DNA of 64,000 bases from an uncultured cyanobacterium (GCA_963744145.1 CAVUSO010000001.1:960001-1024000), one strand, 5' to 3'. Positions 12,455 through 40,165 are shown, counted from the stretch's first letter. Numbers and translations are program-made. The notes: a model not told the origin generated them from the sequence alone.

Positions 12455-14473
12455 TTAAGTTGCAGCTGATTGTGCTGCTTCAATCATTTCTCGAAATTCG
12501 ATCCGGTCTTGACGTGGATCAGCATAACTAACTCTCACATCTAAGCGATCGCCCAGAGCAACTGTCCGATGAAATCGCATGGCTAATTCTAGTCCTAACT
12601 CTTCTAACAAAATTAAGCCTAGATTTTCATCTTCGCGCAACCAACGTAACATTAAGGCTTGCCAGATTTCATCCCCGTGACGTCGGAGATATTCTAATCC
12701 CCAATAGCGATTGGTTTGTCGTTCTACCCAGGAAGCTTCTTGAGCTGCGGTGGTCACACTTAACATGAGTTCCTTGATCGTGTCAGCCGAAAAAGGTAAT
12801 TGATCGCCACGCAAATGGGCTTTAATCTGGAAATGGGCTAGTAAATCCGTATAGCGCCGAATTGGTGAAGTTACTTGAATATAATTATCTAATCCCAAAC
12901 TAGCATGACGACCAGGATTAATACTGATTTCCGATCGGGGCATACAACGACGCATCGCACAGGAACGGACCGGTCCTGCGGGTAACAACATTAATTCTTG
13001 GGCTGGAGGCAATTCTGGTTGGGATTGGGTCCGATAGGGCAGGGGCAGATTTTGGGCTTGACCATAGCGGGCCGCTACTTCTCCCGTTAAAATCATCATT
13101 TCTGCTACTAATTGCCGCGATCGCGAATCTTCAAGCAGATGAATATCAATCTCATCTCCTTTGACCTTAATCACTGCTTCGGGCATAGAGATACTAATTG
13201 CCCCTTGGGACTGACGCCATTCTAAGCGACGTCTCGCCCAAGCTGAAATTGCTTCGATTTCTGATTCTGCCCTTACCCCCAATTCCAGCATTTCATCGAC
13301 ATCTTCATAGGTAAGTCGATAGGTGGGTTTAATCTTGCTGGCCTTGATGGCATACTCATTTATTGCTCCAGTTTCATCTAAAATCATACTGAAACTCAGA
13401 GCGCAGCAGATTTGACCTTGAACTAAACTCATTGGACCTGTTGCCAATTCGGGCGGAAACATGGGCACCATTCCCGTGGGCATATACAGGGTGGTAGTGC
13501 GTTTTCTCGCTTCTAAATCTAGTTCATCTCCAGGAGATAACAAACGGGTAGGATCAGCGATGTGAACCCATATTCTTTGTCTACCATCTGCTAGATATTC
13601 TAAACTTAAGCCATCATCAATCTCTTGGGTGCTTTCATCATCAATGGTATAAACCTTCAGATGAGTTAAATCAAGACGATGATCATGATCGAGGTCCGGA
13701 GGCGGAGTATTTAAACATAATTGGGCCACTTCCAATACCTTGGCAGAGAAAGTTGTGGGAATTTGACTGCGCCGCATAAATAAGTTTTCATGCGGACTCC
13801 ATAAACCTAAATCTACCAAAAGTTGAAACGCGGCTTGGGATGTATCCGAGTATCCTAAGGCAATTAGGGTTTCTTGGGCGGCGGCACGACCGATGGCTTC
13901 TTCGCCTAAAGCTGCAAATCTTTCTACTGCATCTAAACGAGGGCGATCGCTCTGAGTCCACTCTACCTCTTTTCCCAGTTTCCGGTTTTGCACACGACTC
14001 AGAAATCCTGCTAATTCCTGTTGTCGCTGCTGTTCTACTTCTTGCTGATGCTTGATTTCTGCGACTTGAGCAACCGAACGGGGTTCATAGCGATCGCCTT
14101 TTTGCTTGAAATAAAGTTTATCTTCAAATAGCAAACTGTGTGCAGCATAACACTGCGGTGGACTAGCTTCGGAAAATAATAGGATTGCCATTTGAGCAGG
14201 ATCTACCCCTGCTCCATCTTCCACCAGTAGTTCCCAAGCCACTTCTAAACTTGAAGGGTCTATATAAGGATCTACTGTTTGCAGAAAGCGAGGAATGTCT
14301 GAATATTTGTAAGTTTGATCCTTAACCTCATAGGTAATTTGGCCCGGATCGATGGTATGAGGTTGTCCCCTTTCATCGATCACCACCCATTTTTTCTTAC
14401 CTTCTGGACGTTCGACCACAGCGAGACGCCGTTCTCTGTGCAGCCGAAATTCTATTAACGTTCCTTTCTGCAC
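12455..14473 (-). CDS. Ribonuclease II/R family exoribonuclease (RNB domain)
   Basis: TIDDESTQEIDDGLS catalytic motif, VHIAD, TSPIRRYTDL. Confidence 0.93.
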   Translation of the reverse strand: MQKGTLIEFRLHRERRLAVVERPEGKKKWVVIDERGQPHTIDPGQITYEVKDQTYKYSDIPRFLQTVDPYIDPSSLEVAWELLVEDGAGVDPAQMAILLFSEASPPQCYAAHSLLFEDKLYFKQKGDRYEPRSVAQVAEIKHQQEVEQQRQQELAGFLSRVQNRKLGKEVEWTQSDRPRLDAVERFAALGEEAIGRAAAQETLIALGYSDTSQAAFQLLVDLGLWSPHENLFMRRSQIPTTFSAKVLEVAQLCLNTPPPDLDHDHRLDLTHLKVYTIDDESTQEIDDGLSLEYLADGRQRIWVHIADPTRLLSPGDELDLEARKRTTTLYMPTGMVPMFPPELATGPMSLVQGQICCALSFSMILDETGAINEYAIKASKIKPTYRLTYEDVDEMLELGVRAESEIEAISAWARRRLEWRQSQGAISISMPEAVIKVKGDEIDIHLLEDSRSRQLVAEMMILTGEVAARYGQAQNLPLPYRTQSQPELPPAQELMLLPAGPVRSCAMRRCMPRSEISINPGRHASLGLDNYIQVTSPIRRYTDLLAHFQIKAHLRGDQLPFSADTIKELMLSVTTAAQEASWVERQTNRYWGLEYLRRHGDEIWQALMLRWLREDENLGLILLEELGLELAMRFHRTVALGDRLDVRVSYADPRQDRIEFREMIEAAQSAAT

Positions 14474-14976: not shown

Positions 14977-15165
14977 TTATTTAATTTCTTTGTGGACAGT
15001 ATGTTTGTTGCAGTGGGTACAGAACTTTTTCAGCTCTAACCGCGCGGTGGTATTGCGACGGTTTTTGGTAGTTGTATACCGGGATACACCTGGTGATCTT
15101 TTATTGGTGTTAGTACGACACTCGGTACATTCCAAGGTCACGATAATCCGGACGCCCTTAGCCAT
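14977..15165 (-). CDS. rpmG: 50S ribosomal protein L33
   Basis: LECTEC...[27 protein letters not shown]. Confidence 0.98.
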
Positions 15166-15216: not shown

Positions 15217-15745
15217 CTATCTTCTCATATAATTGCTGACTCGATCAAGTAATTTTTTAACTTTTAAATCGAGGGAGTAACCCCGACGGGTAGGGATAAC
15301 GATCGTCCCACTAACGCGATCGTGGAAAGCTTGACGATAGTCCTCATCCACAAAAGCGGTACTACAGTCAGCGATGAGGGGCACAATCAAAATTAAGGGA
15401 GACCCATTTCCTGGTCCAATATTGAGCAAACCGACTAGGGCTAAGTAAGCACAAGTACCTAAAATTAATTCTCGTTTAGCTAGATATTTGAATTTCTGGG
15501 GTTTTCCCAAATCTAGGATCGACTAATTTTAGGTCTAAACTCCAACGTCCCAAGCTTTGTCCCCGATTTTTAAAGACCAAAATTACGCGCAATAGTAGCC
15601 AGATCAGCATAAATCCTAGGATCTGGAGCAAACCGGTCAGGGATGAGATGATTAACCATGTACCCAAGAGATCGATGGCAGTGGCCACGCCCCGCCGCCA
15701 AATTGGTACTCTGAGGAAGCGGATTTTGGGTCTTTCTGTGAGCAT
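15217..15745 (-). pseudogene. RDD-family membrane protein split by an apparent +1 frameshift near 15490 (may be a sequencing error)
   Basis: VPIWRRGVATAIDL...GQSLGRW in one frame and LAKRE...QAFHDRVSGTIV in the other; removing one A restores a single ORF. Confidence 0.8.
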
Positions 15746-20269: not shown

Positions 20270-20956
20270 ATGGGATCTACTACTGGAATTTCTCTGCCTT
20301 TAACAATTCCTCCTTTAGAAAACGGCGATAAGCTTACCCGTTCTGAATTTAAGCGTCGCTGTCATGCCATGCCAAATTTGAAAAAAGCCGAATTAATTGA
20401 AGGAGTAGTTTATATGGCAGCGGCGTTGCGATACAAAAGTCACGGAGAACCTCATGCTTATATTATGAGTTGGCTGGGAGTTTACAAAGCCGCGACTCCT
20501 GGTGTCGGAATAGCTGACAATACTACAGTTTGCCTTGATGCTGATAATGAACCTCAACCTGATGCACTAATGAGAATTGAAAGGGGGGGACGATCGGGGA
20601 TTACTGAAGATGATTATCTCGAAGGTGCGCCGGAATTAATTGTCGAAATTGCCGCTTCTACTGCTTCTTATGATTTACATGAAAAACTAAAAGTTTATCG
20701 GCGAAATGGTGTACAAGAATATTTAGTATGGCGAGTTTATGATGGCGAATTTGATTGGTTTAGGTTAAATGCCGGAGAATATATTAAATTAGAGCCTGAT
20801 GGTAATGGTATAATTTATTCGCAGGTTTTCCCCGGGTTATGGTTAGATAAAGCAGCTTTGTTAGGGGGAAATTTAGCCAAAGTTTTAGAGGTTGTCCAGC
20901 AGGGATTGGTCAGTGAGGTACATCAAGATTTTGTGCAACAATTGGCTAAGGACTAG
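20270..20956 (+). CDS. Uma2-family putative endonuclease
   Basis: LENGDKL, AELIEGVVYM, EPQPD, APELIVEIA, KLKVYRRNGVQEYLVW. Confidence 0.92.
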   Translation: MGSTTGISLPLTIPPLENGDKLTRSEFKRRCHAMPNLKKAELIEGVVYMAAALRYKSHGEPHAYIMSWLGVYKAATPGVGIADNTTVCLDADNEPQPDALMRIERGGRSGITEDDYLEGAPELIVEIAASTASYDLHEKLKVYRRNGVQEYLVWRVYDGEFDWFRLNAGEYIKLEPDGNGIIYSQVFPGLWLDKAALLGGNLAKVLEVVQQGLVSEVHQDFVQQLAKD

Positions 20957-21032: not shown

Positions 21033-22673
21033 TTATTCGATTTTACACCGATCGTGGCAACGTGCATCTAAGCTACAACATAAAGAACAGATTGGACCAT
21101 CGTAAACCGGACAATAGGTCATATCTTCTTGAGCGTATTTATATTCGCAAATACAACAGTTAATGAGACTGGTCTTACTGAAATTACTGAATTGGATGGG
21201 GGGTCTAGCTAGGTAGTATTTACTTTTGGTGATGATGGCAATGATTGGTACTAAAATAAAGGCTAAACTTAAAGCGATAAATGGTGAAAATGCTTGAGCA
21301 ACTTCTCCCATGAAACCAAAAAATGCTAATAGTGATACGCTAAAGGCAATTAGCATTGACCCAAAACCAACTGGGTTGACTTGATAGAGATGACCTCTTT
21401 TAAATTCGATATAGGGGGGACTTAATCCTAAAGGTTTGTTAATGACTAAATCTGCTACTAATGCTCCAATCCATGCGATCGCTCCATTCGCATAAAATGC
21501 TAAAACTTTTGCGAGAGTTTCAAATAATCCAAATTCCATTAATAACAGAGCAATTCCGATATTAAATACTAACCAAATTACTCGTCCCGGATGAGCATGA
21601 GTTAAGCGAGAAAAGAAATTAGACCAAGCTAGTGAACCAGCATAAGCATTGGTGACATTAATTTTAATCTGGGAGATAATGACAAAAAAGGTGGCGATCG
21701 CTAAAACTACACTAGGATCTACAAACATTGCTTGAAATCCAGATAAGTACATCTGGATCGGTTCATTTGCTTTGGTGATATTAATTCCCTGACTAACAAC
21801 TAGAGCTGCTAAAAATGAACCTCCTAACTGTTTAGCTGCACCTAAAATAATCCAACCTGGTCCTGCAATAATTACAGCACTCCACCATTGAAATCGATTT
21901 TTTTCAGTTTGATTGGGCATAAAACGGAGATAATCTACCTGTTCTCCGATTTGAGCAATTAGAGAAAATGATACACTTGCTGCACTGCCAAATAATAGGG
22001 GATCAAAAGCTGCTCCACTGGGAGAATTCCCGGCAAAATTTAGCCAATTAGACCAAGATTCTGGCTCTTTAGATAGGACAAAAATGTAGGGGAGGATCAT
22101 CAAAGTTATCCAGATCGGTTGAGTCCATAATTGTAATTGAGCAATCAGGGTGATCCCAAAAACAACGAGGGGAATAATGATGATTGAGCAAATTATATAG
22201 CCGATCGCTAAAGGTAAATGAAAATACAATTCTAAAGCTTGCGACATAATTGCTGCTTCTAGCGCAAAGAAGATAAATGTAAAAGAAGCATAAATTAAAG
22301 AAGTAATAGTAGAGCCAATATAGCCGAAACCTGCTCCTCTAGTGAGTAAATCCATGTCGATATTATATTTGGCTGCGTAATAGGAAATGGGGATACCAGT
22401 TAAGAAAATTATCACCCCAGCTACTAAAATTCCTCCAATTGCATTCGCTGACCCATAGTTAATTTCTAAGGAACCACCGATCGCTTCTAATGCTAAAAAA
22501 GATATCCCTCCAATTGCCGTATTCGCTACAATAAATGGTGACCACTTTCTGAATGATGGTGGTGCATAGCGTAGAGCATAATCTTCCAGTGTTTCATTGG
22601 CAACCCAAGCATTATAGTCTCTTCTTGAGCGAGTAATCCTTCCCACTTTAGAGCTAATTTCGATTTGCTTCAT
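21033..22673 (-). CDS. Stand-alone purine/cytosine-permease-like (NCS1/SLC5-like) membrane protein with Cys-rich C-terminal tail
   Basis: About 12 hydrophobic segments; RRDYNAWVANETLEDYALRY, IGEQVDYLRF, QIKINVTNAYAGSLAWSNFF; tail CCIC...CP...CSLCCSLDARCHDRC. Confidence 0.8.
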   Translation of the reverse strand: MKQIEISSKVGRITRSRRDYNAWVANETLEDYALRYAPPSFRKWSPFIVANTAIGGISFLALEAIGGSLEINYGSANAIGGILVAGVIIFLTGIPISYYAAKYNIDMDLLTRGAGFGYIGSTITSLIYASFTFIFFALEAAIMSQALELYFHLPLAIGYIICSIIIIPLVVFGITLIAQLQLWTQPIWITLMILPYIFVLSKEPESWSNWLNFAGNSPSGAAFDPLLFGSAASVSFSLIAQIGEQVDYLRFMPNQTEKNRFQWWSAVIIAGPGWIILGAAKQLGGSFLAALVVSQGINITKANEPIQMYLSGFQAMFVDPSVVLAIATFFVIISQIKINVTNAYAGSLAWSNFFSRLTHAHPGRVIWLVFNIGIALLLMEFGLFETLAKVLAFYANGAIAWIGALVADLVINKPLGLSPPYIEFKRGHLYQVNPVGFGSMLIAFSVSLLAFFGFMGEVAQAFSPFIALSLAFILVPIIAIITKSKYYLARPPIQFSNFSKTSLINCCICEYKYAQEDMTYCPVYDGPICSLCCSLDARCHDRCKIE

Positions 22674-22840
22674 AAATTATCACTACCTTCACGATTATTT
22701 CTCTAACACCAAATAAGTAAATTTGGTGATGCTTATTTTTTTTGACATAATAATCTAGATTAATTATTACGGCTCCTTGGTGAAATTACCTAAAAGGATA
22801 GGATTATATTTCTGTACTATACAAAATATCTTAGTAGACT

Positions 22841-22910
22841 AGGATAAAGTTAATCTAGTTTATATTTTGTAGTTTTAGCTACAAAATTAAAAAAAATATT
22901 CATGTATAGT
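22841..22910. promoter_or_regulatory. NtcA box with correctly spaced -10 elements on both strands
   Basis: GTA-GTTTTAGC-TAC at 22869-22882 within TTTTGTAG...CTACAAAA. TATAGT at 22905-22910 (+ strand) and TATCCT at 22846-22841 (- strand) are each 22 nt from the box. Confidence 0.8.
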
Positions 22911-23104
22911 AGTTTAGATGTAAATAATTTGTTTATTTTTACTATTAAAATTATTATGAATTTGAAGCAGAAAAATTTTCTAAATCAGAAAGTTGGTAGC
23001 ATTCCAAGTTGATCAGAAACATTCAAATTGGTGCTATAAAGGAAACTTGGTAAAATTAACCAAGGTTTTTAAACAACTTGAGGAAAAATTAGGAAATCAG
23101 AAAA

Positions 23105-25027
23105 ATGTTGAAGCAAAATATGTCCCATCAAGTAGGTTCACAAGTTGTAATTAGAAAGTTTTTAACTATTTTTTTATTTTTAGCAATTTTGGCAGCAATT
23201 ATTGTCGGGTTATTTTACTATCAAAGTATCAATAGTGCGATCGCTAATTTGATGGTAAAAGAAACTATCTATCCTGTCCAAGAGGTAACTCCCACGGTAG
23301 TCAAACTTAACCAAAATTGGAAAATTGTCTGGCAAATTTCACCAGAACTTTTGCAGACTACATCTGAGAGAATATTAAAACAATTTTTACAAATATATGC
23401 AGGTTTGATCGTCTTCATCGGAATAGGTACTTGGTGGGTTGCATTGTCCGAAATGAGTCGTCAATTATCGGACGTAGAAATCGAACAATCAGCAGCAGAA
23501 ATTCAAGCATTAGGACAACAAGAGAATTTATTTAAACGTCGTTTATCGAGTCAAATTCGTAACTCCCTGGAATTAGATGTAATTCTCCATACCGCAGTAG
23601 CAGAAATTCGGCATTTATTAGAAATAGATTGCTGCAAATTTCTGGAATATAAAACTGATCTTGAAACACCGGAATTTGAATTAAATTATGAAGCTAGTAA
23701 CCAGAGGATACCTAATGCTTGTCCAATCGATTTAATCACAACCACTAAAATCTTAGGACAAGCAATATTAGAATTTAATTTATTACCGAGAAACTCAATT
23801 GATGAAAAAACCTGTAATTTAATTCGGATTAATAATGTTACCACCACTCAGAAAATTAATGATCAAGTTAGGGAACTGCTGACTTCCTTGGGAATTTTAT
23901 CCTTATTAGCAGTATCAATTCGCACCAATTCAGGACGAATGGGTGTAATTGTTTGTGAACAGATCAAAGGATTTCATTATTGGAGCGATGATGAAGTAGA
24001 ATTATTACAAGCGATCGCCGATCAAGTAGCGATCGCGATTGAGCAAGCTGAATTATACCATAAAAGTCGCGTTGCAGCAAGTATTGCTACAGCTCAAGCT
24101 GAACAACTAAGTAAAGCGCTAAGAGAATTACAGCAAACTCAAGCACAGCTAATCCAAACCGAAAAAATGTCAAGTTTAGGACAGTTAGTAGCAGGAGTTG
24201 CCCATGAGATTAATAATCCAGTAAACTTCATTTATGGTAACATTGCCCATGCTAGTAGCTATACCCAAGATTTATTAAACTTAGTGCTGCTATATCAAAA
24301 ATACTATCCCGATCCAGTGGGAGAAATTTCAGATTGGGGTGAGCAGATTGATCTGGAATTTTTGATGGAAGATTTGCCAAAAATGCTCAACTCAATGAAA
24401 GTTGGTGCTGACCGGATTCGTCAAATAGTTTTAACCTTGCGGAACTTCTCCCGACTCGACGAATCAGAAATGAAACCAGTCAGTATTCATGAGGGGATTG
24501 ATAGCACTCTATTAATTTTACAGCATCGACTGAAAAATAAACCAGAGCAAGGTGGGATTAAAATCGTTAAACAATATGGAGATTTACCACAAGTAGAATG
24601 CTATGCTGGACAACTAAACCAGGTATTTATGAATATTATCGCTAATGCGATCGACGCCTTAGAAGAATATAACTCCAAGCGATCGCCATTAGAAATTCAG
24701 CAAAATCCTAGCCAGATTACAATTCAGACCGAAACCATACATTCTACCCATGTCATCATTAAAATCATCGACAATGGACCAGGAATGTCAGCCGCAGTCA
24801 AATCACGGTTATTTGATCCTTTCTTTACCACCAAACCAGTAGGAACAGGAACAGGATTAGGATTATCAATCTGTTATCAAATAGTAGTAGAAAAACACGG
24901 GGGATCGCTCTGGTGTGTATCTGAACCCGAACAAGGTACAGAATTTTGGATAGAAATTCCGGTGAAACAAAATAATCACTATTTGCTCAAAGAAAAGACT
25001 AATCAAGTCGAATTAGTATCTTATTAA
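23105..25027 (+). CDS. Membrane-bound GAF sensor histidine kinase
   Basis: Two TM helices; GAF domain (IRNSLELDVIL...WSDDEVELLQAIADQVAIAIEQAELY); GVAHEINNP H-box; LNQVFMNIIANAIDA; FFTTKPVGTGTGLGL. Confidence 0.92.
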   Translation: MLKQNMSHQVGSQVVIRKFLTIFLFLAILAAIIVGLFYYQSINSAIANLMVKETIYPVQEVTPTVVKLNQNWKIVWQISPELLQTTSERILKQFLQIYAGLIVFIGIGTWWVALSEMSRQLSDVEIEQSAAEIQALGQQENLFKRRLSSQIRNSLELDVILHTAVAEIRHLLEIDCCKFLEYKTDLETPEFELNYEASNQRIPNACPIDLITTTKILGQAILEFNLLPRNSIDEKTCNLIRINNVTTTQKINDQVRELLTSLGILSLLAVSIRTNSGRMGVIVCEQIKGFHYWSDDEVELLQAIADQVAIAIEQAELYHKSRVAASIATAQAEQLSKALRELQQTQAQLIQTEKMSSLGQLVAGVAHEINNPVNFIYGNIAHASSYTQDLLNLVLLYQKYYPDPVGEISDWGEQIDLEFLMEDLPKMLNSMKVGADRIRQIVLTLRNFSRLDESEMKPVSIHEGIDSTLLILQHRLKNKPEQGGIKIVKQYGDLPQVECYAGQLNQVFMNIIANAIDALEEYNSKRSPLEIQQNPSQITIQTETIHSTHVIIKIIDNGPGMSAAVKSRLFDPFFTTKPVGTGTGLGLSICYQIVVEKHGGSLWCVSEPEQGTEFWIEIPVKQNNHYLLKEKTNQVELVSY

Positions 25028-29528: not shown

Positions 29529-30797
29529 TTGATGTCTAACCAAAACTCTAATTTTAAACCCAAACACATTGTTTTAACCTCCCATCCCTCTAATTTTGGC
29601 CCGAAACCAATTCCTATTCATTGGGGAGAAAAAGATCCCATCAAACGCGGACCAATTATCGCTACTCACACGAATCCTGCTCAACGTAATGTGATTGGTA
29701 CTCACTCTGGATCTTACGCTATTTATCGGGCTTTAGCTATAGCGAGGGGAAAATTACAAGCAAATCATCGTGCGGATCTAACCAATACTGCTCCAGCAGA
29801 ACATATTGGTCCTCACCCCAGTTGGTTTGACCCGAAAAAAATTATTGCCCTTGACCCATTTGGAGCATTAGTAGGGGAAATTTATCAGGAATTTTATACC
29901 CAAGGATATGATATTCGCCCGACAATTGCAATTACTAAAGCACATATTAATATGCCCGAATTGCAACAAGCGGTGAGTGAAGGTAGGTTGCAAATTGATG
30001 GCAAAATCATGAAAGATGGTGGCGATTTAGTTGTGACTAAGGCTGCAATTGAACCAGTTTGGTATTTACCAGGAATCGCGCAACGTTTTGAAGTAGTAGA
30101 AAGTGATTTACGTCGGACTTTATTTGAAGAAACCGGAGGAATGTTTCCCGAATTAGTCACCCGTTCAGATTTAGAAGTTTTTTTACCACCGATTGGAGGT
30201 TTAACTGTATATATTTTTGGCGATATTAGCGCGATTACTGACCCAGATAAACCAGTAGCTGTCCGTGTACATGATGAGTGTAATGGTTCGGATGTATTTG
30301 GTTCAGATATTTGTACTTGTCGTCCCTATTTAGTGCATGGAATTGAAGTTTGTGTGCAAACAGCACAAGCTGGAGGTGCAGGGGTAATTGTTTATTTTCG
30401 GAAAGAAGGAAGAGCTTTAGGAGAGGTGACGAAGTTTTTAGTTTATAATGCTCGCAAGCGTCAAGAAGGTGGCGATCGCGCTGACTCCTATTTTAATCGC
30501 ACCGAATGTGTTGCAGGAGTTCAAGATATGCGCTTTCAAGAATTAATGCCAGATGTGCTACATTGGCTAGGAATTAGCAAAATTGACTATCTAGTTTCCA
30601 TGAGCAATATGAAATATAATGCGATCGTGGAATCTGGAATAGAAGTCGGACAAAGAGTAGCAATTCCTGAGGAATTAATTCCTCCTGATGCTCAAGTGGA
30701 AATTATGGCAAAAAAAGCAGCAGGTTACTATAATGAAGGAGAGCTACCAGATGCAATCCTGTTGGCTCAAACTCAGGGAAGAGGGTTAGTAGATTAG
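29529..30797 (+). CDS. GTP cyclohydrolase II-like protein, URC1/Urg1 type
   Basis: N-terminal extension RNVIGTHSGSYAIYRALA; RVHDECNGSDVFGSDICTCRPYL; RKEGRALG. Adjacent to URC4-like gene and upp. Confidence 0.9.
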   Translation: MMSNQNSNFKPKHIVLTSHPSNFGPKPIPIHWGEKDPIKRGPIIATHTNPAQRNVIGTHSGSYAIYRALAIARGKLQANHRADLTNTAPAEHIGPHPSWFDPKKIIALDPFGALVGEIYQEFYTQGYDIRPTIAITKAHINMPELQQAVSEGRLQIDGKIMKDGGDLVVTKAAIEPVWYLPGIAQRFEVVESDLRRTLFEETGGMFPELVTRSDLEVFLPPIGGLTVYIFGDISAITDPDKPVAVRVHDECNGSDVFGSDICTCRPYLVHGIEVCVQTAQAGGAGVIVYFRKEGRALGEVTKFLVYNARKRQEGGDRADSYFNRTECVAGVQDMRFQELMPDVLHWLGISKIDYLVSMSNMKYNAIVESGIEVGQRVAIPEELIPPDAQVEIMAKKAAGYYNEGELPDAILLAQTQGRGLVD

Positions 30798-30836
30798 CAA
30801 GAACCAATTAATCTTAATCAATCTAGGGGAGTAATT

Positions 30837-32073
30837 GTGGAACAGAAAGAATTGGAAATCATCAATTACTTGCGATCGCCCAGAGCAATTCGTGAACGTT
30901 GTCAACAAATATTTCTTTGGGGATGTGAAGATCAGTTGGCTCATTTTCAATGCGATTTGAGTCAATTAGAACCAGTTGCGGATTATGTGATTCAAGTCAT
31001 CAAAAATAATTATCCAGATTTAAACATTCCCATTCATTCCCGTTGGAGACATTTTGAAGTTGGCCATGTTCCCCGTTTAAATCAACTCAATCAAAATTTA
31101 CTCAGATTAAATACGATCGAAAGAGCCAAGATTAAGTTTGATCTGATCATCATTAGTGTATTATTAGATGCTGGTGCTGGTGCCTATTGGCAATATAATG
31201 AAATTGAAACCGGACAAGTTTATCGACGCTCCGAAGGTCTAGCTGTCGCAACTTTGCGAATGTTTTGTCATGGCACTTTTTCGAGTAATTCCAATCAGTT
31301 AATGCAAGTTGACTCTGGAGGACTGTTTAAGTTAACTGAAGCTCAACTAGCTCAAGGATTTCAAGTAAATCAATTAAATCATTTAGTTGGGTTGGGTGGT
31401 CGTTTACAACTATTACACCAATTAGGAAAAGCTTTAGAAAGCTATCCAGAGCTGTTTGGTACTGAAAATCAGCGTCCTGGAAATCTCGTCAATTATTTTT
31501 TAGGTCAAGCCAAAGGTGGTAAATTACCAGCTAGCGCAATTTTAGAGACAATTCTCTCCAGTTTAGCGGAAATTTGGCCGGGAAGATTCTAAAATTGGAG
31601 AAGTAAATCTAGGCGATGTTTGGTCCTATCCAGCTTTACAAACAGAGGATTTTGGTTCGGAATACATTCCTTTTCATAAACTTTCCCAATGGTTGACCTA
31701 TTCATTGTTAGAGCCATTAACAGAACTGGGTGTAGAAATTATTGAATTAGAAGCACTCACCGCTTTACCAGAATATCGCAATGGTGGATTATGCTTAGAT
31801 TTAGGTTTAATCAAAGTCAAAAATCCCGCACTCTTAAATAAATCCTATTTACCAGGAGCTGAAATTATCGTTGAATGGCGATCGCTGACAGTAATTTTAT
31901 TAGATCGAATTGCCACAGTAATTCGGGAAAAATTAGGAATGAGTGAGCAAGAATTACCGTTAGTGAAAATCTTACAAGGAGGAACATGGGCAGCAGGTAG
32001 AAAAATTGCCGCAGAATTGAGAAAAGGAGGTATTCCCCCCATCCATATTGAAAGTGATGGTACAGTATTTTAA
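30837..32073 (+). pseudogene. URC4/Urg3 (DUF1688) family protein split by an apparent +1 frameshift near 31590 (may be a sequencing error)
   Basis: IPIHSRWRHF, SVLLDAGAG and RSEGLA in the first frame; NLGDVW, PFHKLSQWLTYSL, LPEYRNGGL and SDGTVF continue in the second. Confidence 0.88.
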
Positions 32074-32100
32074 ATTTATTTATTTTAGAGTTAAATTCAG

Positions 32101-32736
32101 ATGCACCCAGCTGTAACAATCATTGATCATCCCTTAATTCAACATAAACTCACCTTAATGAGGAAAACCGAAACTAGCACAGCTAAATTTCGGACTTTAT
32201 TGAAAGAAATTGGGATGCTATTAGCTTACGAAGTAACAAGAGATTTACCACTTAAATATGAGCTAATTAACACACCAATGACAGTAATGAATGCACCAGT
32301 GTTAGCTTCAGAAAAGAAAATGGTAATTATTTCCATTATGAGAGCTGGACAGGGAATTGTCGATGGAATATTAGAACTGATACCTTCAGCACGAGTAGGA
32401 CATATTGGGTTATATCGAGATCCAAAAACTTTAGTACCAGTGGAATATTATTTTAAAGTTCCCCATGATGTAGAAGATCGAGATTTATTAGTAGTTGATC
32501 CGATGATGGCAACAGGTAACTCAGCTATTGCTGCTGTTTATCGACTGAAAGAAACTCGTCCCAAATCAATAAAATTCGTGTGTTTATTAGCAGCACCAGA
32601 GGGAATTAAGCATTTTCACGAGATTCATCCCGATGTACCAGTTTATACTACTGCAATTGACGATCGCCTAGATGAACATGGGTATATTATCCCAGGTTTA
32701 GGTGATGCAGGCGATCGCTTATATGGAACAAAATAA
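32101..32736 (+). CDS. upp: Uracil phosphoribosyltransferase
   Basis: [38 protein letters not shown]. Confidence 0.96.
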
Positions 32737-32971: not shown

Positions 32972-33689
32972 ATGAATTTACCACACACAAATAACCTTAA
33001 TAAACCCGCCCTGCTCAAAGGAGTGAAAGTCGTCATTCTTCCCCAAATCCGTTATGCCAGTGCCTTGCCCGGAATTTTGCTGAATCTCTACGGAAGTAAG
33101 GAGGTAGCAGGTGATGTCACCTGGGCTGAATTTGCCGAAGATATAGGAAACATAGAACCCGACGTACCAATTGGCCAACCCATCCTCAATGCCGAGATTT
33201 ATATCTTGGATGAAAATTTGCAGCCAGTTCTTCCATGCGAAGTAGGCGAACTCTGGGTAGGAGGTATTGTGCTAGCACGCGGATACCATAAAAAGCCAGA
33301 AGAAACTAAAGCACGATTCATCCCCAACCCGTTTTCTGGCAATGGTATTCTCTTCAAAACAGCTAGTGGCGTTTGTTGTTCCTTCTACAGTTAATGTGGA
33401 TACAATGAAACAGTATGCCCTCTTCAACCTACCTCATTACATGGTGCCAGCGAGAATCGTCGCCGTAGATGAACTGCCCTTGACTCCCAATGGTAAACTT
33501 GATCGTCAAGCCTTATCTGGCATGAGTGGGTGGAGATTTAGAGTTATCGACTCTGAAAATCTCCTTCAAACCGAAACAGAAAAGTTACTAGCAGACATTT
33601 GGCAGCAGATGTTTCTTTTGTTTCCTATTAGCAGAGATGATGATTTCTTTCCATTGATCCATACAAGAAAAAATAATGACTCGAATTAG
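32972..33689 (+). pseudogene. Internally deleted NRPS adenylation-thiolation relic
   Basis: NLYG, PIGQPI, GELWVGG..LARGY, RFIPNPF; then a jump from FKT to LVAFVV, LPHYMVP, LTPNGKLDR. The carrier domain ends at DDDFF, before the GGxS serine. Confidence 0.85.
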
Positions 33690-34119
33690 ACTAATGCACG
33701 CCAAGTTACATCGAGTGCGCGTAACAGATGCAAATGTTAATTATGTAGGCAGTGTCACTATTGATAGTGAATTGATTGATCAGGTGGGAATCCTGCCTTT
33801 GCAGGAGGTGGAGATTTGGAATATTAGCAATGGCAATCGCTTGTCAACCTATGTGTTGCCCGGAGATCCTGGCAGTGGTGTTATTTGTCTCAATGGTGCA
33901 GCAGCTTATTTGTGCGCTCCCGGAGATTTTGTGATTATTGCTGCCTATGAAGAACGCGATCGCACTGAGGTATTCCGCACCGGACATGAGGCGCGGGTGG
34001 TGATTGCCGATGAACACAATCGCTGTAAACAGTTTTTCTACCAGACTTTAGCTCCCTGTCAGGGCAAACTCATATTTCACACCGAGACTAGCGAAGCACC
34101 AGCAACTACCAATAGCTAA
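33676..34119 (+). CDS. panD: Aspartate 1-decarboxylase (pyruvoyl-dependent)
   Basis: [20 protein letters not shown] (Gly-Ser cleavage site), [15 protein letters not shown]. Confidence 0.92.
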
Positions 34120-34122
34120 ATT

Positions 34123-34323
34123 ATGCCGTTTAAACCTAACTCCCTATGCTTGAGTATAATCCTTGGTGTACTGGCTGCACTACTACCGCTATCAATAGAT
34201 ATGGGACTACCAGCATTTCCTGCCATTGGTACTTCACTAAATGCCTCTCCTGCTGCTGTAGGACTAACACTCAGTTTATTTATGGCTAGTCAATACTCTA
34301 TTAAAAGAAGAGTCTGCTACTAA
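34123..34323 (+). pseudogene. N-terminal fragment of a Bcr/CflA-type MFS exporter
   Basis: LGVLAALLPLSIDMGLPAFPAI...LTLSLFM matches TM1-TM2 of Bcr/CflA, then ends abruptly. Confidence 0.78.
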
Positions 34324-34391
34324 ACTAAATCAAGCTTACTCAATACTTTCCTCACTAGAATTGACTGAAACCGATCATACTCAACCGGATG

Positions 34392-34555
34392 GCGATCGCA
34401 ACTCTTAGAGAATTGGGGATCGAGCCAGGTTCAGGTTATGTGATATAATATTCTTAATTGAAAGTGCCAATTCACCAGGGAAAGGTGCAATTATGACCCA
34501 AGAATTAATAGATTTAAGAACCAGTATCCTTGAGGGTCGGTATCAAGATGCTTTG
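34392..34555 (+). repeat. 164-bp direct repeat, copy 1 (copy 2 at 40463-40626)
   Basis: Begins at HIP1 GCGATCGC and covers the upstream region plus the first 21 codons of the DUF29-like gene; five mismatches by eye. Confidence 0.92.
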
Positions 34556-35038
34556 CAGATCGTCGATGAATTAGATTGGATGAGTAAGAAAGGAACATTA
34601 CGCACCATTAAATCCTATTTAATGCGGTTGCTAATTCATTTGATTAAAAATCACCTTGAACAACGATTAACTAATTCTTGGGCAGCTTCGATTAGAGGTT
34701 CGGTTGTAGAAATTCTTGACTATAATCTTAAAGATAATACAACTTCTTATTACGTTAACCCGAATGAATGGGAAACCATAATTGAAGAAATTTTTGATTT
34801 GGCTGTTGGTGAAGCTAGTGCAGAAGTGATGGCAGGTGAATATACTCCTTTTGAACTCTTAGAGATCATGGATCAAAGCCAAATAATTGCCACTACAAAA
34901 GTTTTTTTAGCTTTGACCTACAATTACTCGTTAAAAGATTTACCCGCAGCGGTAGATCGGAATTTAACTGAATTGCCTGGTGGAGAAGAGTGGAAAACTG
35001 GAAAAAGCAAGAAAAATAGTACCTTCAGGTTGGGGTAA
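34493..35038 (+). CDS. DUF29-like protein
   Basis: MTQELIDLR...VDELDWMSK...SYLMRLLIHLIK...SWAASIR; paralog of the gene at 40564. Confidence 0.78.
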   Translation: MTQELIDLRTSILEGRYQDALQIVDELDWMSKKGTLRTIKSYLMRLLIHLIKNHLEQRLTNSWAASIRGSVVEILDYNLKDNTTSYYVNPNEWETIIEEIFDLAVGEASAEVMAGEYTPFELLEIMDQSQIIATTKVFLALTYNYSLKDLPAAVDRNLTELPGGEEWKTGKSKKNSTFRLG

Positions 35039-35109
35039 TGCTAAATCTCGATGCTTAACTGAACCGTATGGCGATAAAATCTACTGATATTTGAGGTAAT
35101 TTTATGACC

Positions 35110-35285
35110 CCTACTCTTACTCAGTCAAAGAATTATTCTCAGTCGTTGATGAGAGTTTAGCCGCATTGCCCGGAGGTGAAGAGTGGACTATGGGCAGAAG
35201 GAAGAAAAAATAGGTCGTTCAGATTTGGGTTAGGGATGAAGAAAGACGATCAAAATTAATACCGTGGAAAACTATTAGAATTGTT
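35110..35285 (+). repeat. 176-bp direct repeat (copy at 43184-43359): orphan 3' end of the second DUF29-like gene
   Basis: CCTACTCTTACTCAGT...GGAAAACTA.TAGAATTGTT; three mismatches by eye. Confidence 0.92.
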
Positions 35286-35443
35286 TAATAACTTAGAAGA
35301 ACAGAAAACTCCCGGTAGTCCCTGCTTTCATGGTGCGTGCGATCGCCCACAGAAAGGAAATATCAACAGAACCCTTCGACAGGCTCAGGGCAAGTTTTGT
35401 CCAGATTTGTAGGGGCAAAGCATTTCGGCAGATCAATAATTGC

Positions 35444-36843
35444 TTATCCCTATGATTGTCACTCTAGATAAAGTATAATAGGGACAATAAGCTAAAAGTC
35501 TCATCTGATATATGGTAGAACCAAAATCAAGCCCTCAAACGATCAGCTTCATCGATGACTATTGTCAATATTATCAAAAGCTGTTTCCAGAAGTGCGAAG
35601 CTTTACAGCTTTTAAATATTTGCACATTGGGTTACTTTCGGAATTAAAACGGAAATCCTGACCAGAAATTGCGAAACTGGTTGGGTTAAAAAATTCCCAA
35701 TCATTACATCATTTTTTACAAAGCTCACCCTAGTCAGCAGAGCAATTAAAATTAGCGCGATTGCAATTAATCTTAAAAATTTTAAATGGCAGAGAAATTA
35801 CGGCGATCGTTGATGAAACAGGAGACCCAAAAAAAGGAAAAACTACAGATTATGTGAAGCGGCAATATATTAGGAACTTGGGTAAGCTAGAAAACGGAAT
35901 TGTAGCGGTAACGGTATATGGTTTAATTGATCACCTAACTATGCCTCTGACCTTTGAAGTTTATCAACCGCAAGAGCGACTAAAACCAGGAGATAAATAT
36001 AAAAGTAAACCACAACTAGCTGGTGAAATGTTAAAAGAACGACCGAAGATGGGATTTAATTTTAAATTAGTTTTAGCAGATAGTTTATCTGGTGAAAGTG
36101 CCAGTAATTTTATTAGTTTATTAGATGAATTACAGCTTAACTTTGTGATGTCAATTCGGAGTAACCACAAAGTGCTGATGGCAAAAGGCCAAAAAGTTCC
36201 CAGAAATAGATGGCGGAAATTTGAGCGAGTTTTTACCAATGGAAAAACCCAAGAACGATAGATAAGAGAAATAATTTTTGGTCAACGTCGTGGTTATCAA
36301 TATTGGCAAATTACTACAGACAAAGAGGAATTACCTCAGAATGAAACTTGGTATGTAATCACCAAATTTCCGGGGATTAAGTATGAGCAAGTTGGTCAAT
36401 TCTATGGATTAAGAACATGGGTAGAATATGGGTTAAAGCCAAGTAAAAACTCCTTGGGATGGGCAGATTTTCGGCTCACGGATGATCAGGAAATTGAAAA
36501 ATGGTGGGAATTAGTGTGTAGTGCTTATTTATTGGTGAGTCTTTATTCATCATCCTTACGATCACCGAGTGCGATGAATGAAACTAAATTTTCTGCTCAT
36601 TCCCACTGGTGTCCGCCTAATAACTGGAATAATTTGCTAAATAATTTACGTTTAATTATTCAGCCTTTTATCGGTTTTAATCTGATTAAACTTTGGTTAG
36701 ATGTTTTTCCAATTCCACAATTATCCTGGGGGTTTCCGAGACTAATTGCCCTGATGAATGAGTTTCCTAGTTGCTTAGATTTTAATGCTTTTGAGCTTGA
36801 CTTATATTTTTCCTCTGCTAGCGAGTGACAATCATAGGGATAA
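35444..36843 (+). mobile_element. IS701-family insertion sequence, inactive
   Basis: Perfect 21-bp inverted ends TTATCCCTATGATTGTCACTC (35444-35464) and GAGTGACAATCATAGGGATAA (36823-36843), enclosing a DDE transposase. Confidence 0.88.
35512..36828 (+). pseudogene. IS701-family transposase with three in-frame stop codons
   Basis: MVEPK...FIDDYC..., IVDETGDPKKGKTTDYVKRQY, VLADSL, LGWADFR. Stops at 35659 (TGA), 35731 (TAG) and 36259 (TAG). Confidence 0.88.
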
Positions 36844-37033
36844 CACACTGGACCAAATACTAGAACGCGATGATTGGACGGCTGAGGACATCGAGGACAT
36901 CAGTTATGAAGAGTTGTTCGCGAAGGTCAGCCAGATAATGGCAAAGCCCCTTTATTCGGAAAATAAAGAGGCTTATACGCTTGAGGAGTTGGACGCTCGA
37001 CAAGCTTTAGGATTTGACTGGTAGAAACGAATG

Positions 37034-37060
37034 GGGGTTGAAGCTGGTAACTTCAGCCCC
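37034..37060. terminator. Hairpin between convergent frames in the foreign segment
   Basis: GGGGTTGAAG-N7-CTTCAGCCCC. Confidence 0.5.
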
Positions 37061-37119
37061 GCCCAAATTTATATAAAAGCTAAGGATGTCTGTTGCGTGT
37101 CTTGATTGCGACTTCCCGA

Positions 37120-38100
37120 CTACTTGATTGCAAAGTAACCTGGCCCGTTGAGGTCGGTAAGCAGGCCCGGCCCAGTTGGTTCCCAATCCAGTTGCTCACG
37201 CGTGCGAACGCTCGAAGACGGATTGTCGGTTGCGACGAAGGCCCCGAACCAACTAAAGGCCTTGGCCGCTTCTTCAGCCGATATGGACTCAACCGGAATG
37301 CTCAATTGACGGCCAATGATCTCGGCGATGGCACGGAAAGGGATGCCCTCATCGGCAACACCGTGATAGCGAGTTCCCGCAACACCTTTTTCGAGTGCAA
37401 GCCGGAACAGCCGCGCCACATCCCGCCGATGCACGGCTGGCCAGCGATTTTGCCCGTCGCCGATATAAGCAAAGCGGCCTCGTTTACGCGCGATGCCAAT
37501 CAGTTGGGGCACCAACCCCGTATCCCCTTCGCCGTGCACCGTCGGCGCAAGCCGAATCATCGTTGCCCGTACCCCTAACGATGCCAGCGCCTCGACATTT
37601 TCCTCCGCCTTCGCGCGTGCAAATCCAGACGAGAGGGGATCGGGTTCATCCTCTTCGGTTGCCGCCTTCACGGCACGAAATCCAACGTGAGACAGGCCCA
37701 TGGTGCCGAAGGTCGTAACCAGAGGCCGTCCCGAGCCTTTCAGGGCTGCACCAAAGGTATCAATTGCGCGCCGATCAGCTGCCGCTGCGACCGCCATGAA
37801 GCGACCGGCAATGCCAGAGGGCAATCCACCGAAGATAACACCCATGCGCTGCAAAAACGGAATCTGCGATGGGCCGTGCATGAAGGCTAGGTGGATTACC
37901 CCGTCAGCCGCTGCCGCTGCATTGAGCAGGCTCTCCATATTATCGAGGCCGCCAAGAATAGGCTGAATTCCCTTGGCAGACAATTTCTTTGCTGCCTCCT
38001 CCGTTCGCGCCAGCGCCGTCACAGTATGTCCAGCCGCCATCAGTTCTTCCGCGACTGCTGATCCAATAAAACCCGTTGCTCCCGTAACAAAGACTCGCAT
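37120..38100 (-). CDS. Extended SDR / NAD-dependent epimerase-dehydratase family oxidoreductase, GC-rich and foreign-looking
   Basis: MRVFVTGATGFIG Rossmann motif, GVIHLAF, RWPAVH; AAGGAGGAG ribosome-binding site; GC near 60% in sampled lines. Confidence 0.9.
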   Translation of the reverse strand: MRVFVTGATGFIGSAVAEELMAAGHTVTALARTEEAAKKLSAKGIQPILGGLDNMESLLNAAAAADGVIHLAFMHGPSQIPFLQRMGVIFGGLPSGIAGRFMAVAAAADRRAIDTFGAALKGSGRPLVTTFGTMGLSHVGFRAVKAATEEDEPDPLSSGFARAKAEENVEALASLGVRATMIRLAPTVHGEGDTGLVPQLIGIARKRGRFAYIGDGQNRWPAVHRRDVARLFRLALEKGVAGTRYHGVADEGIPFRAIAEIIGRQLSIPVESISAEEAAKAFSWFGAFVATDNPSSSVRTREQLDWEPTGPGLLTDLNGPGYFAIK

Positions 38101-38242
38101 GTGACTCCTCCTTATTCTTTGCCCGACCGATTCTGGTCCGTCGCCCGACGGGCTGTTTCCTGGGCAACTGAATCCAACTCTAGACGCAGAATGCAGGACG
38201 GTCTATAATCGATAATCCGTTTTCCTTTATCGCGAGTCCAGA

Positions 38243-38290
38243 ATGGATCCGTTATCTCAAATTCTTGATCCTCTTAAAGCCGCAAGCCCC
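38243..38290 (+). pseudogene. Possible truncated start of an AraC-family regulator
   Basis: MDPLSQILDPLK resembles the MDPLS-type N-terminus of cupin-AraC regulators often divergent from such SDR genes; only about 16 codons support it. Confidence 0.4.
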
Positions 38291-38770
38291 AGTTCCGACT
38301 CGTCAACTAGAAAATCATCAGGGATAGTTTTGCGTCTGTCCCAAATTTGGTCGAGACCGCAATTGTAACAATCGAATCGTACAGCCATATTCAAATCAAT
38401 AGCCGAATAAGCATATAAGTCAATATAGTACAGTTACCCCAAATATCAAAACCGCAAGGCAAGAAGGTATCGGAACCAACCAAAAGTTTTACCAGTGCCA
38501 CGGAAACAATCTTTTTACCTTGGTACTCGACTGTTCTACCTGTTCAAAGAATGGGAATAGTTTATGAAAAATTTGGTATTATTGGGGATAGTAGAGGTAA
38601 AGAAAATCGTTTGCGTATTTTTCTAAAACAGAGATATGATCATCAACAAGAATCTCAATCTTTTTTCAAGACTCATTCTTTTAGTAAAAATTTAAACAAT
38701 GAAAATAAAAGTGTCAGTCAATTAAAAGACCGAATAAAAGAATTATTTAAAACGCTTAATCAAAAGATTT

Positions 38771-39993
38771 CAGAAACTCAAAAAAGACGCAGAGTCCTAT
38801 CTCAATACCACAATCCGGGATGCAGTAATTACAGTTCCAGCTTATTTTGATGATCGAAAAAGAATGGCGACTAAGACCGCAGGAGAACTGGCAGGACTAA
38901 ATGTACTTCAAATTATTAACGAGCCTACTGCCGCAGCGATAGAGTTTACTGCTAGCCATACAGTAGAAAACAAAACTATACTTGTTTATGATTTAGGATG
39001 TGCTACATTTGATGTCACTATTATGAAAGTTAATGGTAAAAAAATCGATGTAATTGCTACTTGTGGTGACCATCAACTCGGTGGGAAAGATATTGATGAT
39101 CGTATCATAGCTTACTTTCAGGAGGAATTTCAAAAAACAACTGGATTCGATCCTTTAAATTCTCGGGCTGGTCAAGAAAGACTCCGTAATGAAGCAGAAG
39201 CAAGTAAAAAAAGACTATCTTCCTCTACCAATACAAGGATTAGTCTTGATGTAGAAGGTCGTCAAGCAAACTTTAAAATTAATCAAACCAAATTTGATGA
39301 CCTAATTGATGACTTGATTGTGCGTACTGAAATGAATATTGAGTTAGTTTTAGAGAATGCTAATTTAACTATTCAAAAAATTGATGATGTTCTTTTAGTA
39401 GGAGGTTCAAGTCGAATCCCAGCCGTGAGCAAGCTGTTAAAAAAATATTCGGTAAAGAACCACTAAAAACGGTTAATCCTGACGAAGTAGTAGCCCAGGG
39501 TGCAGCGATCTTAGCACAAAGTTTAGCAATTGAATCTGGTCAAGCAATTCCTGCTCCCAATACAACTTTACCGAAATTTTCTGATGTTTGTTCTCACAGT
39601 TTGGGAGTTGTGAGCCTAAATGAATATGGTGTACCTGAAAACTCAGTAATTATCGCCAAAAATAGTAAGATTCCCTGCACCTATTCACAAAGCTATGGTA
39701 CTGTTCGAGATAATCAGAATACAGTTAATATTCAAATTTTGCAAGGAGATGCTAAAGATCCAGAAGATTGTGGACAGTTAGGAAATGCCCTGATAGAAAA
39801 TATTCCTCCTTCACCACAAGGTTCAGAAGTGGAAATTACTTTTGCCTATGATGCAAATGGTATTCTTAATGTGACTGAAATCTTTGTCCCTACTGGTCAG
39901 AAAATAGTTACAACAATTCAAGTTCAAGAAACCATGTCTCCTGAAGCTACTCAAAAAAGTAAAAAAGATATTAATGATATCAATATTGAGTAG
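38771..39993 (+). pseudogene. Hsp70/DnaK-like gene relic (N-terminus missing, one frameshift)
   Basis: KLKKDAESYL...DAVITVPAYF, IINEPTAAA, YDLGCATFD, LVGGSSRIP; after the shift NPDEVVAQGAAI, IEITF-like VEITFAYDANGILNV. No GIDLGTT motif found upstream. Confidence 0.85.
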
Positions 39994-40029
39994 TCTAACA
40001 ATAGAGCATAAATTTAGCATGATATAATC

Positions 40030-40165
40030 CAACACGGTTCAGTTAAGAATATTTTTGAAGATTCTCAGCAGAAGAAGGGTAAAGCATTCGGATCTAATAT
40101 TACTGGTTTGAGCGCTCAATTGTCGCTAAACATGCTTTACCCCTACACTTAACTGAACCGTATTG
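40030..40165. mobile_element. 136-bp MITE-like element
   Basis: Terminal inverted repeats CAACACGGTTCAGTTAAG and CTTAACTGAACCGTATTG (17/18 match). Lone ends of the same type occur at 27872-27889 and 35054-35071. Confidence 0.78.

Follow-up and report, generated by a model that had tools for sequence, protein, structure and literature searches.

A stand-alone permease-like protein divergent from a sensor-deleted histidine kinase: a candidate two-gene counterpart of permease-fused amide/urea sensor kinases

The UhpC protein of E. coli is a transporter homolog that senses glucose-6-phosphate for UhpB, a multi-pass kinase without a periplasmic sensor domain. A transporter likewise co-regulates a sensor kinase within a membrane complex in the DctA/DcuS system, as described in two papers (PMC4280142, PMC5703999), and in the "transceptors" CbrA (an SLC5-fused kinase) and Ks-Amt5 (an Amt-fused kinase) a complete transporter-fold domain is the kinase input, according to three others (PMC13022988, PMC7096432, PMC5764959). 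CbrA, the Amt-kinase fusions and a family of amide/urea sensor kinases fused to a permease-like domain all raise the question of how a transporter fold signals its ligand to a kinase. We describe here a locus in which relatives of the two halves of the last-named family are encoded by separate, neighboring genes. It lies in a 64,000-nucleotide stretch of DNA from an uncultured cyanobacterium (GCA_963744145.1, CAVUSO010000001.1:960001-1024000), which is analysed at its full length and called the window. A first-pass annotation, made from the sequence alone, had reported two divergent open reading frames (ORFs), and both are exactly as it gave them: a permease-like protein of 546 amino acids (aa) on the minus strand and a histidine kinase of 640 aa on the plus strand, the loop between the two transmembrane (TM) helices of the kinase being 54 aa where "about 55" had been noted.

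The reading we tentatively adopt, one that falls somewhat short of probable, is that this locus is a two-gene counterpart of the permease-fused amide/urea sensor kinases, in which the permease-like protein gives input to a sensorless kinase. The permease-like protein would bind a small nitrogenous compound, whether urea, formamide or another such short amide, and would serve as the membrane input or co-sensor for the kinase, docking in trans on its two-helix membrane anchor as the permease-like domain would in cis in the fused proteins. The kinase would then phosphorylate an unlinked response regulator, and when nitrogen is limiting, NtcA would probably drive transcription of both genes from the divergent promoter region between them. 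New here are the unfused pair itself, the anchor shared with the fused proteins, the deletion of the kinase's sensor domain, and an intermediate position of the permease-like protein in the family tree, with fused-type residues in its core.

The kinase anchor and the recurring gene pair

The evidence that ties the window kinase to the fused sensors is the module of two helices that follows the Cys-rich tail in those proteins. By BLASTP, kinase residues 1-134 align with this module behind the Cys tail of fused proteins at E=5e-11 and 2e-9. A tblastn search with kinase residues 1-140 against the whole source genome of the window (G000, 7.7 Mb) returned only the kinase itself and the module of a fused paralog (E=1.4e-6). 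A profile of the anchor, built from 172 distinct post-tail modules of fused proteins with G000 left out, was run against the 21,615 six-frame ORFs of at least 60 aa from G000; it found the fused paralog at E=5.8e-37, the window kinase at 1.8e-17 over both helices, and its next best sequence at 0.0022. Because the profile and the tblastn search give the same pair, the sole unfused kinase of G000 with the anchor is the one that adjoins the sole stand-alone permease-like gene. This shared anchor bears out the proposal that each of the two genes is a specific relative of one half of the fused sensors.

Linkage of the two genes in other genomes had been set as a test beforehand, and the pairing does recur in at least two other lineages. 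The orthologous locus in another genome (L045) has the same divergent pair, with a permease-like protein 77% and a kinase 58% identical to those of the window. Members of the permease and kinase clusters also lie on shared contigs in further assemblies, of 694,925 and 54,535 bp for the type represented by proteins P0002 and P0122 (the smaller being from Microcoleus sp. FACHB-831), and of 56,235, 49,324 and 7,466 bp for the L045 type. Because the last contig is only 7,466 bp long, its two genes are at most about 3 kb apart. Two of the three paired lineages lack the periplasmic sensor in an alignment of kinase orthologs (alignment A1). Among the other stand-alone loci of the genome and metagenome collections described below, none has a separate kinase bearing the anchor. 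A model of the complex between the permease-like protein (from an alignment of 33 stand-alone relatives, alignment A2) and kinase residues 1-150 (from A1), made without controls, scored 0.01 against a mark of 0.32, which counts neither for nor against binding.

The hydrophobic helices of the kinase, read directly from its sequence, span residues ~19-39 and ~94-114. Pfam places HisKA at residues 358-380, and the H-box histidine H367 is invariant among the orthologs in A1. The window kinase is most similar to P0122 (608 aa), at 64% identity over the full alignment, and to the 924-aa kinase of L045 (58%); next are some 75 Nostoc proteins, each about 866 aa long, in which the two-helix anchor is followed by PF21623, GAF and the kinase core. 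In the L045 kinase PF21623 (HK_sensor_dom_bact) occupies residues 100-307, and Pfam gives no PF21623 match in the window kinase, which otherwise has the anchor, the GAF domain and the HisKA/HATPase core of this PF21623-GAF family. The window kinase aligns with L045 residues 18-71 and then from residue 304 onward, the gap corresponding to L045 residues ~72-303; because the alignment resumes at 304, we conclude that about 230 residues of a periplasmic sensor domain were lost in frame. Periplasmic sensor domains homologous to PF21623 of L045 are found in 2p7j and 3lid (E about 3e-7), and the first-pass annotation, which saw in the loop a sensor domain lacking its middle, is borne out by both the alignment and this relationship. 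The sensor-deleted kinases match the anchor profile as one unbroken stretch (E=2.1e-28 for P0122). Since one profile matches both, the anchor of the fused kinase halves and that of the PF21623-GAF kinases have a common origin.

The same deletion could be taken to mean that the two genes are chance neighbors, that the kinase is on its way to being lost, and that the adjacency is meaningless. The kinase is indeed an orphan, with no receiver-domain or response-regulator gene within ~16 kb, its sensor is deleted, and the region holds broken genes and transposases. Its ORF is intact, however, and the catalytic motifs are invariant among orthologs at 56-64% identity. The sensorless state is common to two diverged lineages, the window kinase and P0122, of which the latter has the larger deletion; both are full-length and retain all catalytic motifs at 64% mutual identity. 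Because both sensorless kinases keep every catalytic motif, long-term function is indicated rather than decay. The recurrence of the pair in L045 and on shared contigs elsewhere, and the conservation of a promoter element at the level of its motif (below), speak against decay as well, and we regard it as improbable.

Three further observations concern the kinase and its surroundings. Nostoc P0189 (590 aa) is also without the sensor domain, with gap boundaries similar to those of P0122, and P0198 starts inside the sensor domain; by these comparisons, loss of the PF21623 periplasmic domain may be recurrent. The GAF region of the window kinase is 38-44% identical to that of P0201-P0232, kinases of about 930 aa with a UrtA-like periplasmic-binding-domain sensor (PF13433/PF13458), a similarity that is another hint of a kinase lineage wired to urea or amide sensing. 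The part of the window at 32972-42676 is rich in broken genes and mobile elements, among them AMP-binding fragments (32972-33689), Hsp70 fragments (38864-39466 and 39601-39993), DDE transposases (35761-36261 and 41036-42676) and two DUF29 genes.

Table 1. Features of the divergent gene pair, in window coordinates
Feature	Position	Strand	Description
Stand-alone permease-like protein, 546 aa	21033..22673	-	ORF; 12-helix NCS1/LeuT-type fold (model) and C-terminal Cys-rich domain
Cys-rich tail, residues 506-543	21045..21158	-	Alignment A2; eight invariant cysteines
Divergent intergenic region, 431 bp	22674..23104	.	Common to both genes
Perfect TGTA-N8-TACA palindrome (NtcA-type box)	22868..22883	.	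Sequence pattern
Orphan sensor histidine kinase, 640 aa	23105..25027	+	TM1, 54-aa loop, TM2, coiled coil, GAF, HisKA, HATPase_c
Two-helix membrane anchor, residues 19-114	23159..23446	+	Homologous to post-tail module of fused permease-kinases; deletion scar near residue 54
GAF domain, residues 156-312	23570..24040	+	PF01590, E=1.7e-13; sole recognisable ligand-binding domain left
HATPase_c, residues 503-621	24611..24967	+	Pfam; ATP-lid glycines invariant among orthologs

The permease-like protein among stand-alone and fused relatives

The designation "permease-like" given in the first-pass annotation stands for the fold and fails for the sequence family. The 546-aa protein matches no Pfam family at E<=10, and so has no match to the Pfam model for NCS1 transporters (Transp_cyt_pur); it matches no NCBIfam family and no PDB sequence, and a profile of 33 family members found no match among PDB sequences at E<=1. 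An AlphaFold2 model built from the 33 stand-alone relatives (mean predicted local distance difference test, pLDDT, 76; predicted TM-score, pTM, 0.77) has twelve long helices of the LeuT type, with breaks at residues 56-59 and 240-241, the positions of TM1 and TM6. The top Foldseek matches of the model are CodB (7qoa) and Mhp1 (2jln, 4d1a, 2x79), at probability 1.00 and 15-18% identity, with TM-scores to NCS1 transporters of 0.61-0.72 when normalised by target; other LeuT-fold carriers come next. As far as the model goes, the label is therefore true of the fold and of no curated sequence family. The family is highly conserved, with 62% mean column identity across five phyla in A2, and its members carry the NCBI label "cytosine permease". 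We found no paper on it in the literature.

Eight tail cysteines (C506, C509, C521, C529, C532, C533, C539 and C543) are invariant in 33 of 33 stand-alone proteins in A2, H540 is nearly invariant, and C507 is variable. In the window protein their spacing is C506-C507-I-C509 ... C521-P ... C529-S-L-C532-C533 ... C539-H ... C543, and the stop codon follows three residues beyond C543. The tail forms short strands and two helices in the AlphaFold2 model, at pLDDT 55-70. By analogy with NCS1 topology it is predicted to be cytoplasmic, and it would be a metal-binding module that belongs to the permease-like domain itself. The stop codon of the permease-like gene is just 76 bp from a convergent Uma2-family gene (20270-20956, plus strand); because the interval is so short, no kinase remnant lies 3' of the permease-like gene.

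Most members of the family are longer. A search of a large protein collection returned more than 5,594 homologs, and we sorted the best 120 by length, counting those of at least 850 aa as long, those of at most 565 aa as stand-alone, and those between as intermediate. Ninety-one of these best 120 are long and have HATPase_c, 22 are of stand-alone length, and 7, several of them named "partial", are intermediate. Clustering at 50% identity gave 469 representatives at E<=1e-30, and the 66 listed ones whose match covers 500 or more residues of the query divide into 59 long proteins and 7 with the stand-alone length, a count that underestimates stand-alone forms because the two architectures share more than 50% identity. 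Both samples agree with the statement in the first-pass annotation that the domain usually serves histidine kinases as an N-terminal input. Its restriction of the fused forms to proteobacteria proved too narrow, since they are common in cyanobacteria and one is encoded in the source genome itself. Of 401 genomes sampled evenly across the phylum, 16 have a match, and all copies except that of the window are long frames or frames cut by a contig end. The fused paralog of the source genome (L002, G000:C1:3839797-3843381) has a permease-like domain 69% identical to that of the window, followed by Cys tail, two helices, HisKA, HATPase_c and receiver. Because G000 encodes L002 as well, the source organism carries both the fused and the two-gene form.

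Family trees were computed with FastTree on 167 permease domains and with IQ-TREE on 64 rows; both are unrooted. A single branch, with support 100 (FastTree) and 99 (IQ-TREE), sets apart all 59 clearly stand-alone rows, which represent Cyanobacteriota, Pseudomonadota, Actinomycetota, Bacillota and Verrucomicrobiota. P0031 and P0106, two proteins of stand-alone length of which the second is named "partial", are nested in fused clades and were dropped from the residue comparison below as probably truncated records. The window protein, 57-80% identical over its full length to other stand-alone members, belongs on the stand-alone side. There it forms a subclade of seven rows with L045 and P0002-P0006 (support 91 and 83), and this subclade is sister to every other stand-alone protein, which makes it, in the unrooted tree, the stand-alone lineage nearest the fused sensors. 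Rooting with distant members gave no root: four stand-alone ones joined the stand-alone side and one fused one joined the fused side, all on very long branches.

These trees contradict the idea, implied by the first-pass statement that "the fusion is split", that a fused permease-kinase of G000 recently broke in two with inversion of one half. The match of the kinase anchor to the post-Cys module of fused forms would be expected from such a fission. The stand-alone proteins, on the other hand, share one side of an old branch across five phyla, and the window protein is 76-80% identical to the rest of its subclade and 66-74% to fused forms. The nearest relatives of the kinase are PF21623-GAF kinases, not fused kinases, and the fused forms examined (P0008, L002) have no GAF domain. 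G000, moreover, keeps a separate and intact fused paralog. Recent fission is accordingly very improbable.

Nine alignment columns separate the 52 other stand-alone proteins from 104 fused proteins, each column being at least 85% conserved within either group and differing between them. At these nine the window's subclade has the fused-type residue six times, the stand-alone type twice, and neither once. Four of the six fused-type positions are 59 and 62, just past the TM1 break, and 345 and 349, in the middle of TM8 of the model; we take the TM1-break and TM8 elements to be the substrate and cation sites of LeuT-fold carriers. An acidic residue is shifted here, not lost, being D62 in the operon-linked clade and E63 in the fused forms and the window's subclade. 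The fused-type residues of the subclade fit a sensor-like core and fit retained ancestral states equally well.

In a more specific form of our reading, the pair would be an unfused survivor from the boundary at which an NCS1-fold lineage and the two-helix anchor became fused sensors. The permease-like protein would then be a receptor without ion-coupled transport, docking in trans, with its eight-Cys metal module in the coupling interface, and the kinase would thus have been free to drop its periplasmic domain. We consider this, taken as a whole, unlikely, though worth stating.

Two observations on the fused relatives may be recorded here. Seventeen loci (L020, L028-L030, L033-L037, L039, L070, L080, L083, L112, L114, L117 and L120) have a stand-alone and a fused copy within a few kb, usually with formamidase or amidase genes; because the copies fall on opposite sides of the tree, they are an old pair of sensor and transporter paralogs. 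In L003 and L047, which are identical in sequence, the fused frame stops at 723 aa and a 273-aa frame with the remaining kinase core follows 3 bp on, on the same strand, the break being a frameshift, an assembly error or a naturally split kinase half.

Genomic context, promoter region and the weighing of explanations

The context of the family was drawn from two collections. The 80 genome loci come from species-representative genomes and comprise 26 stand-alone loci, 13 with stand-alone and fused genes side by side (paired loci), and 41 fused or cut by a contig end; their neighboring ORFs were clustered and one representative of each cluster was annotated with Pfam. The 80 metagenome loci comprise 36 stand-alone, 4 paired, 32 fused and 8 unclear. 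FmdA_AmdA (acetamidase/formamidase) occurs in 24 of the 80 genome loci (13 stand-alone, 10 paired, 1 fused), along with CN-hydrolase amidases (15), FmdB-type zinc ribbons (14), urease alpha (6) and, in cyanobacteria, DUF3318 (12); UrtA-like periplasmic-binding-domain regulators are among the neighbors too. Confined to the 39 stand-alone or paired genome loci, the counts are FmdA_AmdA 23, CN_hydrolase 13, FmdB-type zinc ribbon 13 and urease alpha 6. The 36 stand-alone metagenome loci agree (FmdA 17, CN-hydrolase 15, UreC 9), and a UrtA-like gene stands beside 16 of the 32 fused ones. The association with urea utilisation that the first-pass annotation gave for the fused forms is thereby supported, and it extends to formamide and short amides. 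Nucleobases, also named there as substrates, find no contextual support, the context of the relatives being amides and urea. In two papers on M. smegmatis transcriptomes, msmeg_3402, a "cytosine permease" that may belong to this family, adjoins msmeg_3403, a "formamidase", and both are induced by nitrogen limitation.

This context also favors the main competing explanation, in which a transporter is paired with an ordinary regulator. The 546-aa protein would be a plain urea/short-amide transporter or facilitator, and the kinase would sense a cytoplasmic ligand through its GAF domain and control the transporter gene, or be co-regulated with it, via an unlinked response regulator. Other members of the stand-alone side sit in formamidase, amidase and urease operons as uptake genes would, an example being the fmdA-fmdB-permease order on one strand in L070. 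The modeled fold is a complete 12-helix NCS1-type one, the kinase has kept its GAF domain, and the kinase family works without a permease-like gene in Nostoc-type genomes. Divergent pairs of a regulator and its target are, furthermore, common. This explanation leaves unexplained why the sole unfused kinase of G000 with the fused-sensor anchor should be the neighbor, why the periplasmic sensor was lost in two of three paired lineages, and why six of nine discriminating core positions have the fused-type residue. Nor does it account for the surroundings of the window's own gene: no formamidase, amidase or urease gene lies near it or elsewhere within the window, L045 has none either, and no catabolic gene adjoins the permease-like gene. 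We hold this explanation to be quite possible, if on the doubtful side.

A URC-type uracil-catabolism cluster does lie in the window at 29529-32736, 4.5-7.7 kb downstream. It consists of a URC1-like GTP cyclohydrolase II with GTP_CH_N (29529-30797), DUF1688 in two ORFs (30837-31592, profile positions 1-245, and 31693-32073, positions 284-420), which may be a frameshifted or interrupted gene, and a uracil phosphoribosyltransferase (32101-32736). It may correspond to the yeast URC pathway, which releases urea. Because L045 lacks the cluster, we did not use it as evidence on the substrate.

That the pair is nitrogen-regulated, as the first-pass annotation held, is supported at the level of sequence patterns. 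We take the consensus of NtcA-activated cyanobacterial promoters to be GTA-N8-TAC, about 22 nt, and TAN3T. The perfect palindrome between the two genes (Table 1) is flanked on either side, at a distance of 22 nt, by a TAN3T hexamer: TATAGT (22905-22910) in the direction of the kinase and TATCCT (the reverse complement of 22841-22846) in that of the permease-like gene. The L045 intergenic region has TGTA-N8-TACA at 5829-5844, exactly 22 nt, and then a perfect TATAAT, toward the permease gene. The two boxes differ in their internal sequences and occur once each in orthologous intergenic regions of about 400 bp. TGTA-N8-TACA is found twice in the 64 kb of the window against 0.86 expected, and once in L045 against 0.11 expected, whereas the shorter core GTA-N8-TAC is at chance level in the window (10 found, 8.0 expected). 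The box is thus a predicted NtcA-type site whose spacing fits the consensus. The second TGTA-N8-TACA of the window, at 15073-15088, lies between an RNase II-like gene (12455-14473, minus strand) and a small ORF at 15217-15510 (minus strand).

A number of observations weigh against the reading in which the permease-like protein gives input to the kinase. The anchor is common to the whole PF21623-GAF family, being present in 80 of 80 members (about 75 of them from Nostoc) and in 0 of 40 other GAF kinases. In genus g22 the kinase fragment was found in 8 of 8 genomes and the permease in 0 of 8 (G368 and G372 are examples). Because kinase orthologs, with their own sensor intact, occur where no permease-like gene was found, the anchor alone does not imply docking, and contact between the two proteins is something that we infer. 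The kinase core is 48.5-63.9% identical to class-A fused kinase cores, a likeness that is non-specific: the 29 best non-self tblastn high-scoring segment pairs in G000 are equally similar (52-68%), and we rejected kinase-core similarity as a sign of a split. Linkage is seen by sequence in two loci and elsewhere comes from contigs of equal size; within the subclade, the window and L045 alone offer DNA from which it can be read, because a scan of metagenomes gave nothing more than 74% identical. Pairing does not require sensor loss, since the L045 kinase is paired and still has its sensor domain, and the sensorless Nostoc P0189 has no known permease link. The GAF domain still present in the kinase could be the true source of its input. 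Ancestral states kept in a basal branch may account for the fused-like core residues. Finally, G000 has no FmdA or FmdB, and its UreC gene is at 6.84 Mb, 5.8 Mb from the pair. A small share of the weight remains for explanations other than those discussed.

The two-gene version is useful in either case. If the pair is the unfused boundary form, it is a natural split transceptor, whose two separable proteins allow one to dissect how a LeuT fold signals to a kinase: the kinase is stripped of other extracytoplasmic input, its anchor is the same as that of the fused proteins, and the partners can be expressed, mutated and reconstituted separately. Should the 546-aa protein be a transporter and nothing more, the annotation gained is useful all the same, namely that of a urea/short-amide permease family that current models miss. 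The genomic context provides the first functional handle on a highly conserved family without a curated model, and the family falls into two clades, one of catabolic operons and one of sensors, told apart by nine residues open to mutagenesis.

Comparison with described systems

The permease-fused amide/urea sensor kinases are the closest relatives of the pair. They have the same permease-like domain (66-74% identical) with its eight-Cys tail, their post-tail two-helix module is homologous to the anchor of the window kinase, and they share the association with urea and amides. They differ in that the window's halves are separate divergent genes and that its kinase bears a GAF domain along with the scar of a periplasmic sensor, both absent from P0008 and L002. 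Compared with the fused hybrid sensors, the window kinase has no receiver domain, and no response regulator, urt or fmd gene is adjacent.

NCS1 transporters CodB and Mhp1 resemble the window protein in structure, being the best matches of its model, in which the TM1 and TM6 helices are similarly broken. They are only 15-18% identical to it, the window protein has an additional eight-Cys domain, and the context of its relatives is one of amides and urea, not nucleobases. CbrA and Ks-Amt5 are covalent fusions of other transporter families, without a Cys-rich tail; the SLC5 domain of CbrA is also of the LeuT fold. In the transceptor literature that a non-exhaustive search brought up, there was no unfused two-gene form beside a sensorless kinase.

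A transporter-fold gene encoded together with a membrane kinase, the arrangement of UhpC/UhpB and of DctA/DcuS-type systems, is found in the window, in L045 and on the shared contigs. In DctA/DcuS, unlike the window pair, the kinase still has a working PDC sensor in the periplasm, DctA is a genuine transporter with a different fold, and there is no fusion counterpart (a "Rosetta stone") that joins the two. UhpC/UhpB corresponds to the division of labor proposed here, a transporter-fold gene adjoining a membrane kinase without an extracytoplasmic sensor. The fold is MFS there and NCS1/LeuT here, the kinase family and its anchor are different, and UhpA is co-encoded whereas no regulator is encoded with the window pair. 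The interaction of UhpC with UhpB is experimentally established, while that of the window pair is proposed.

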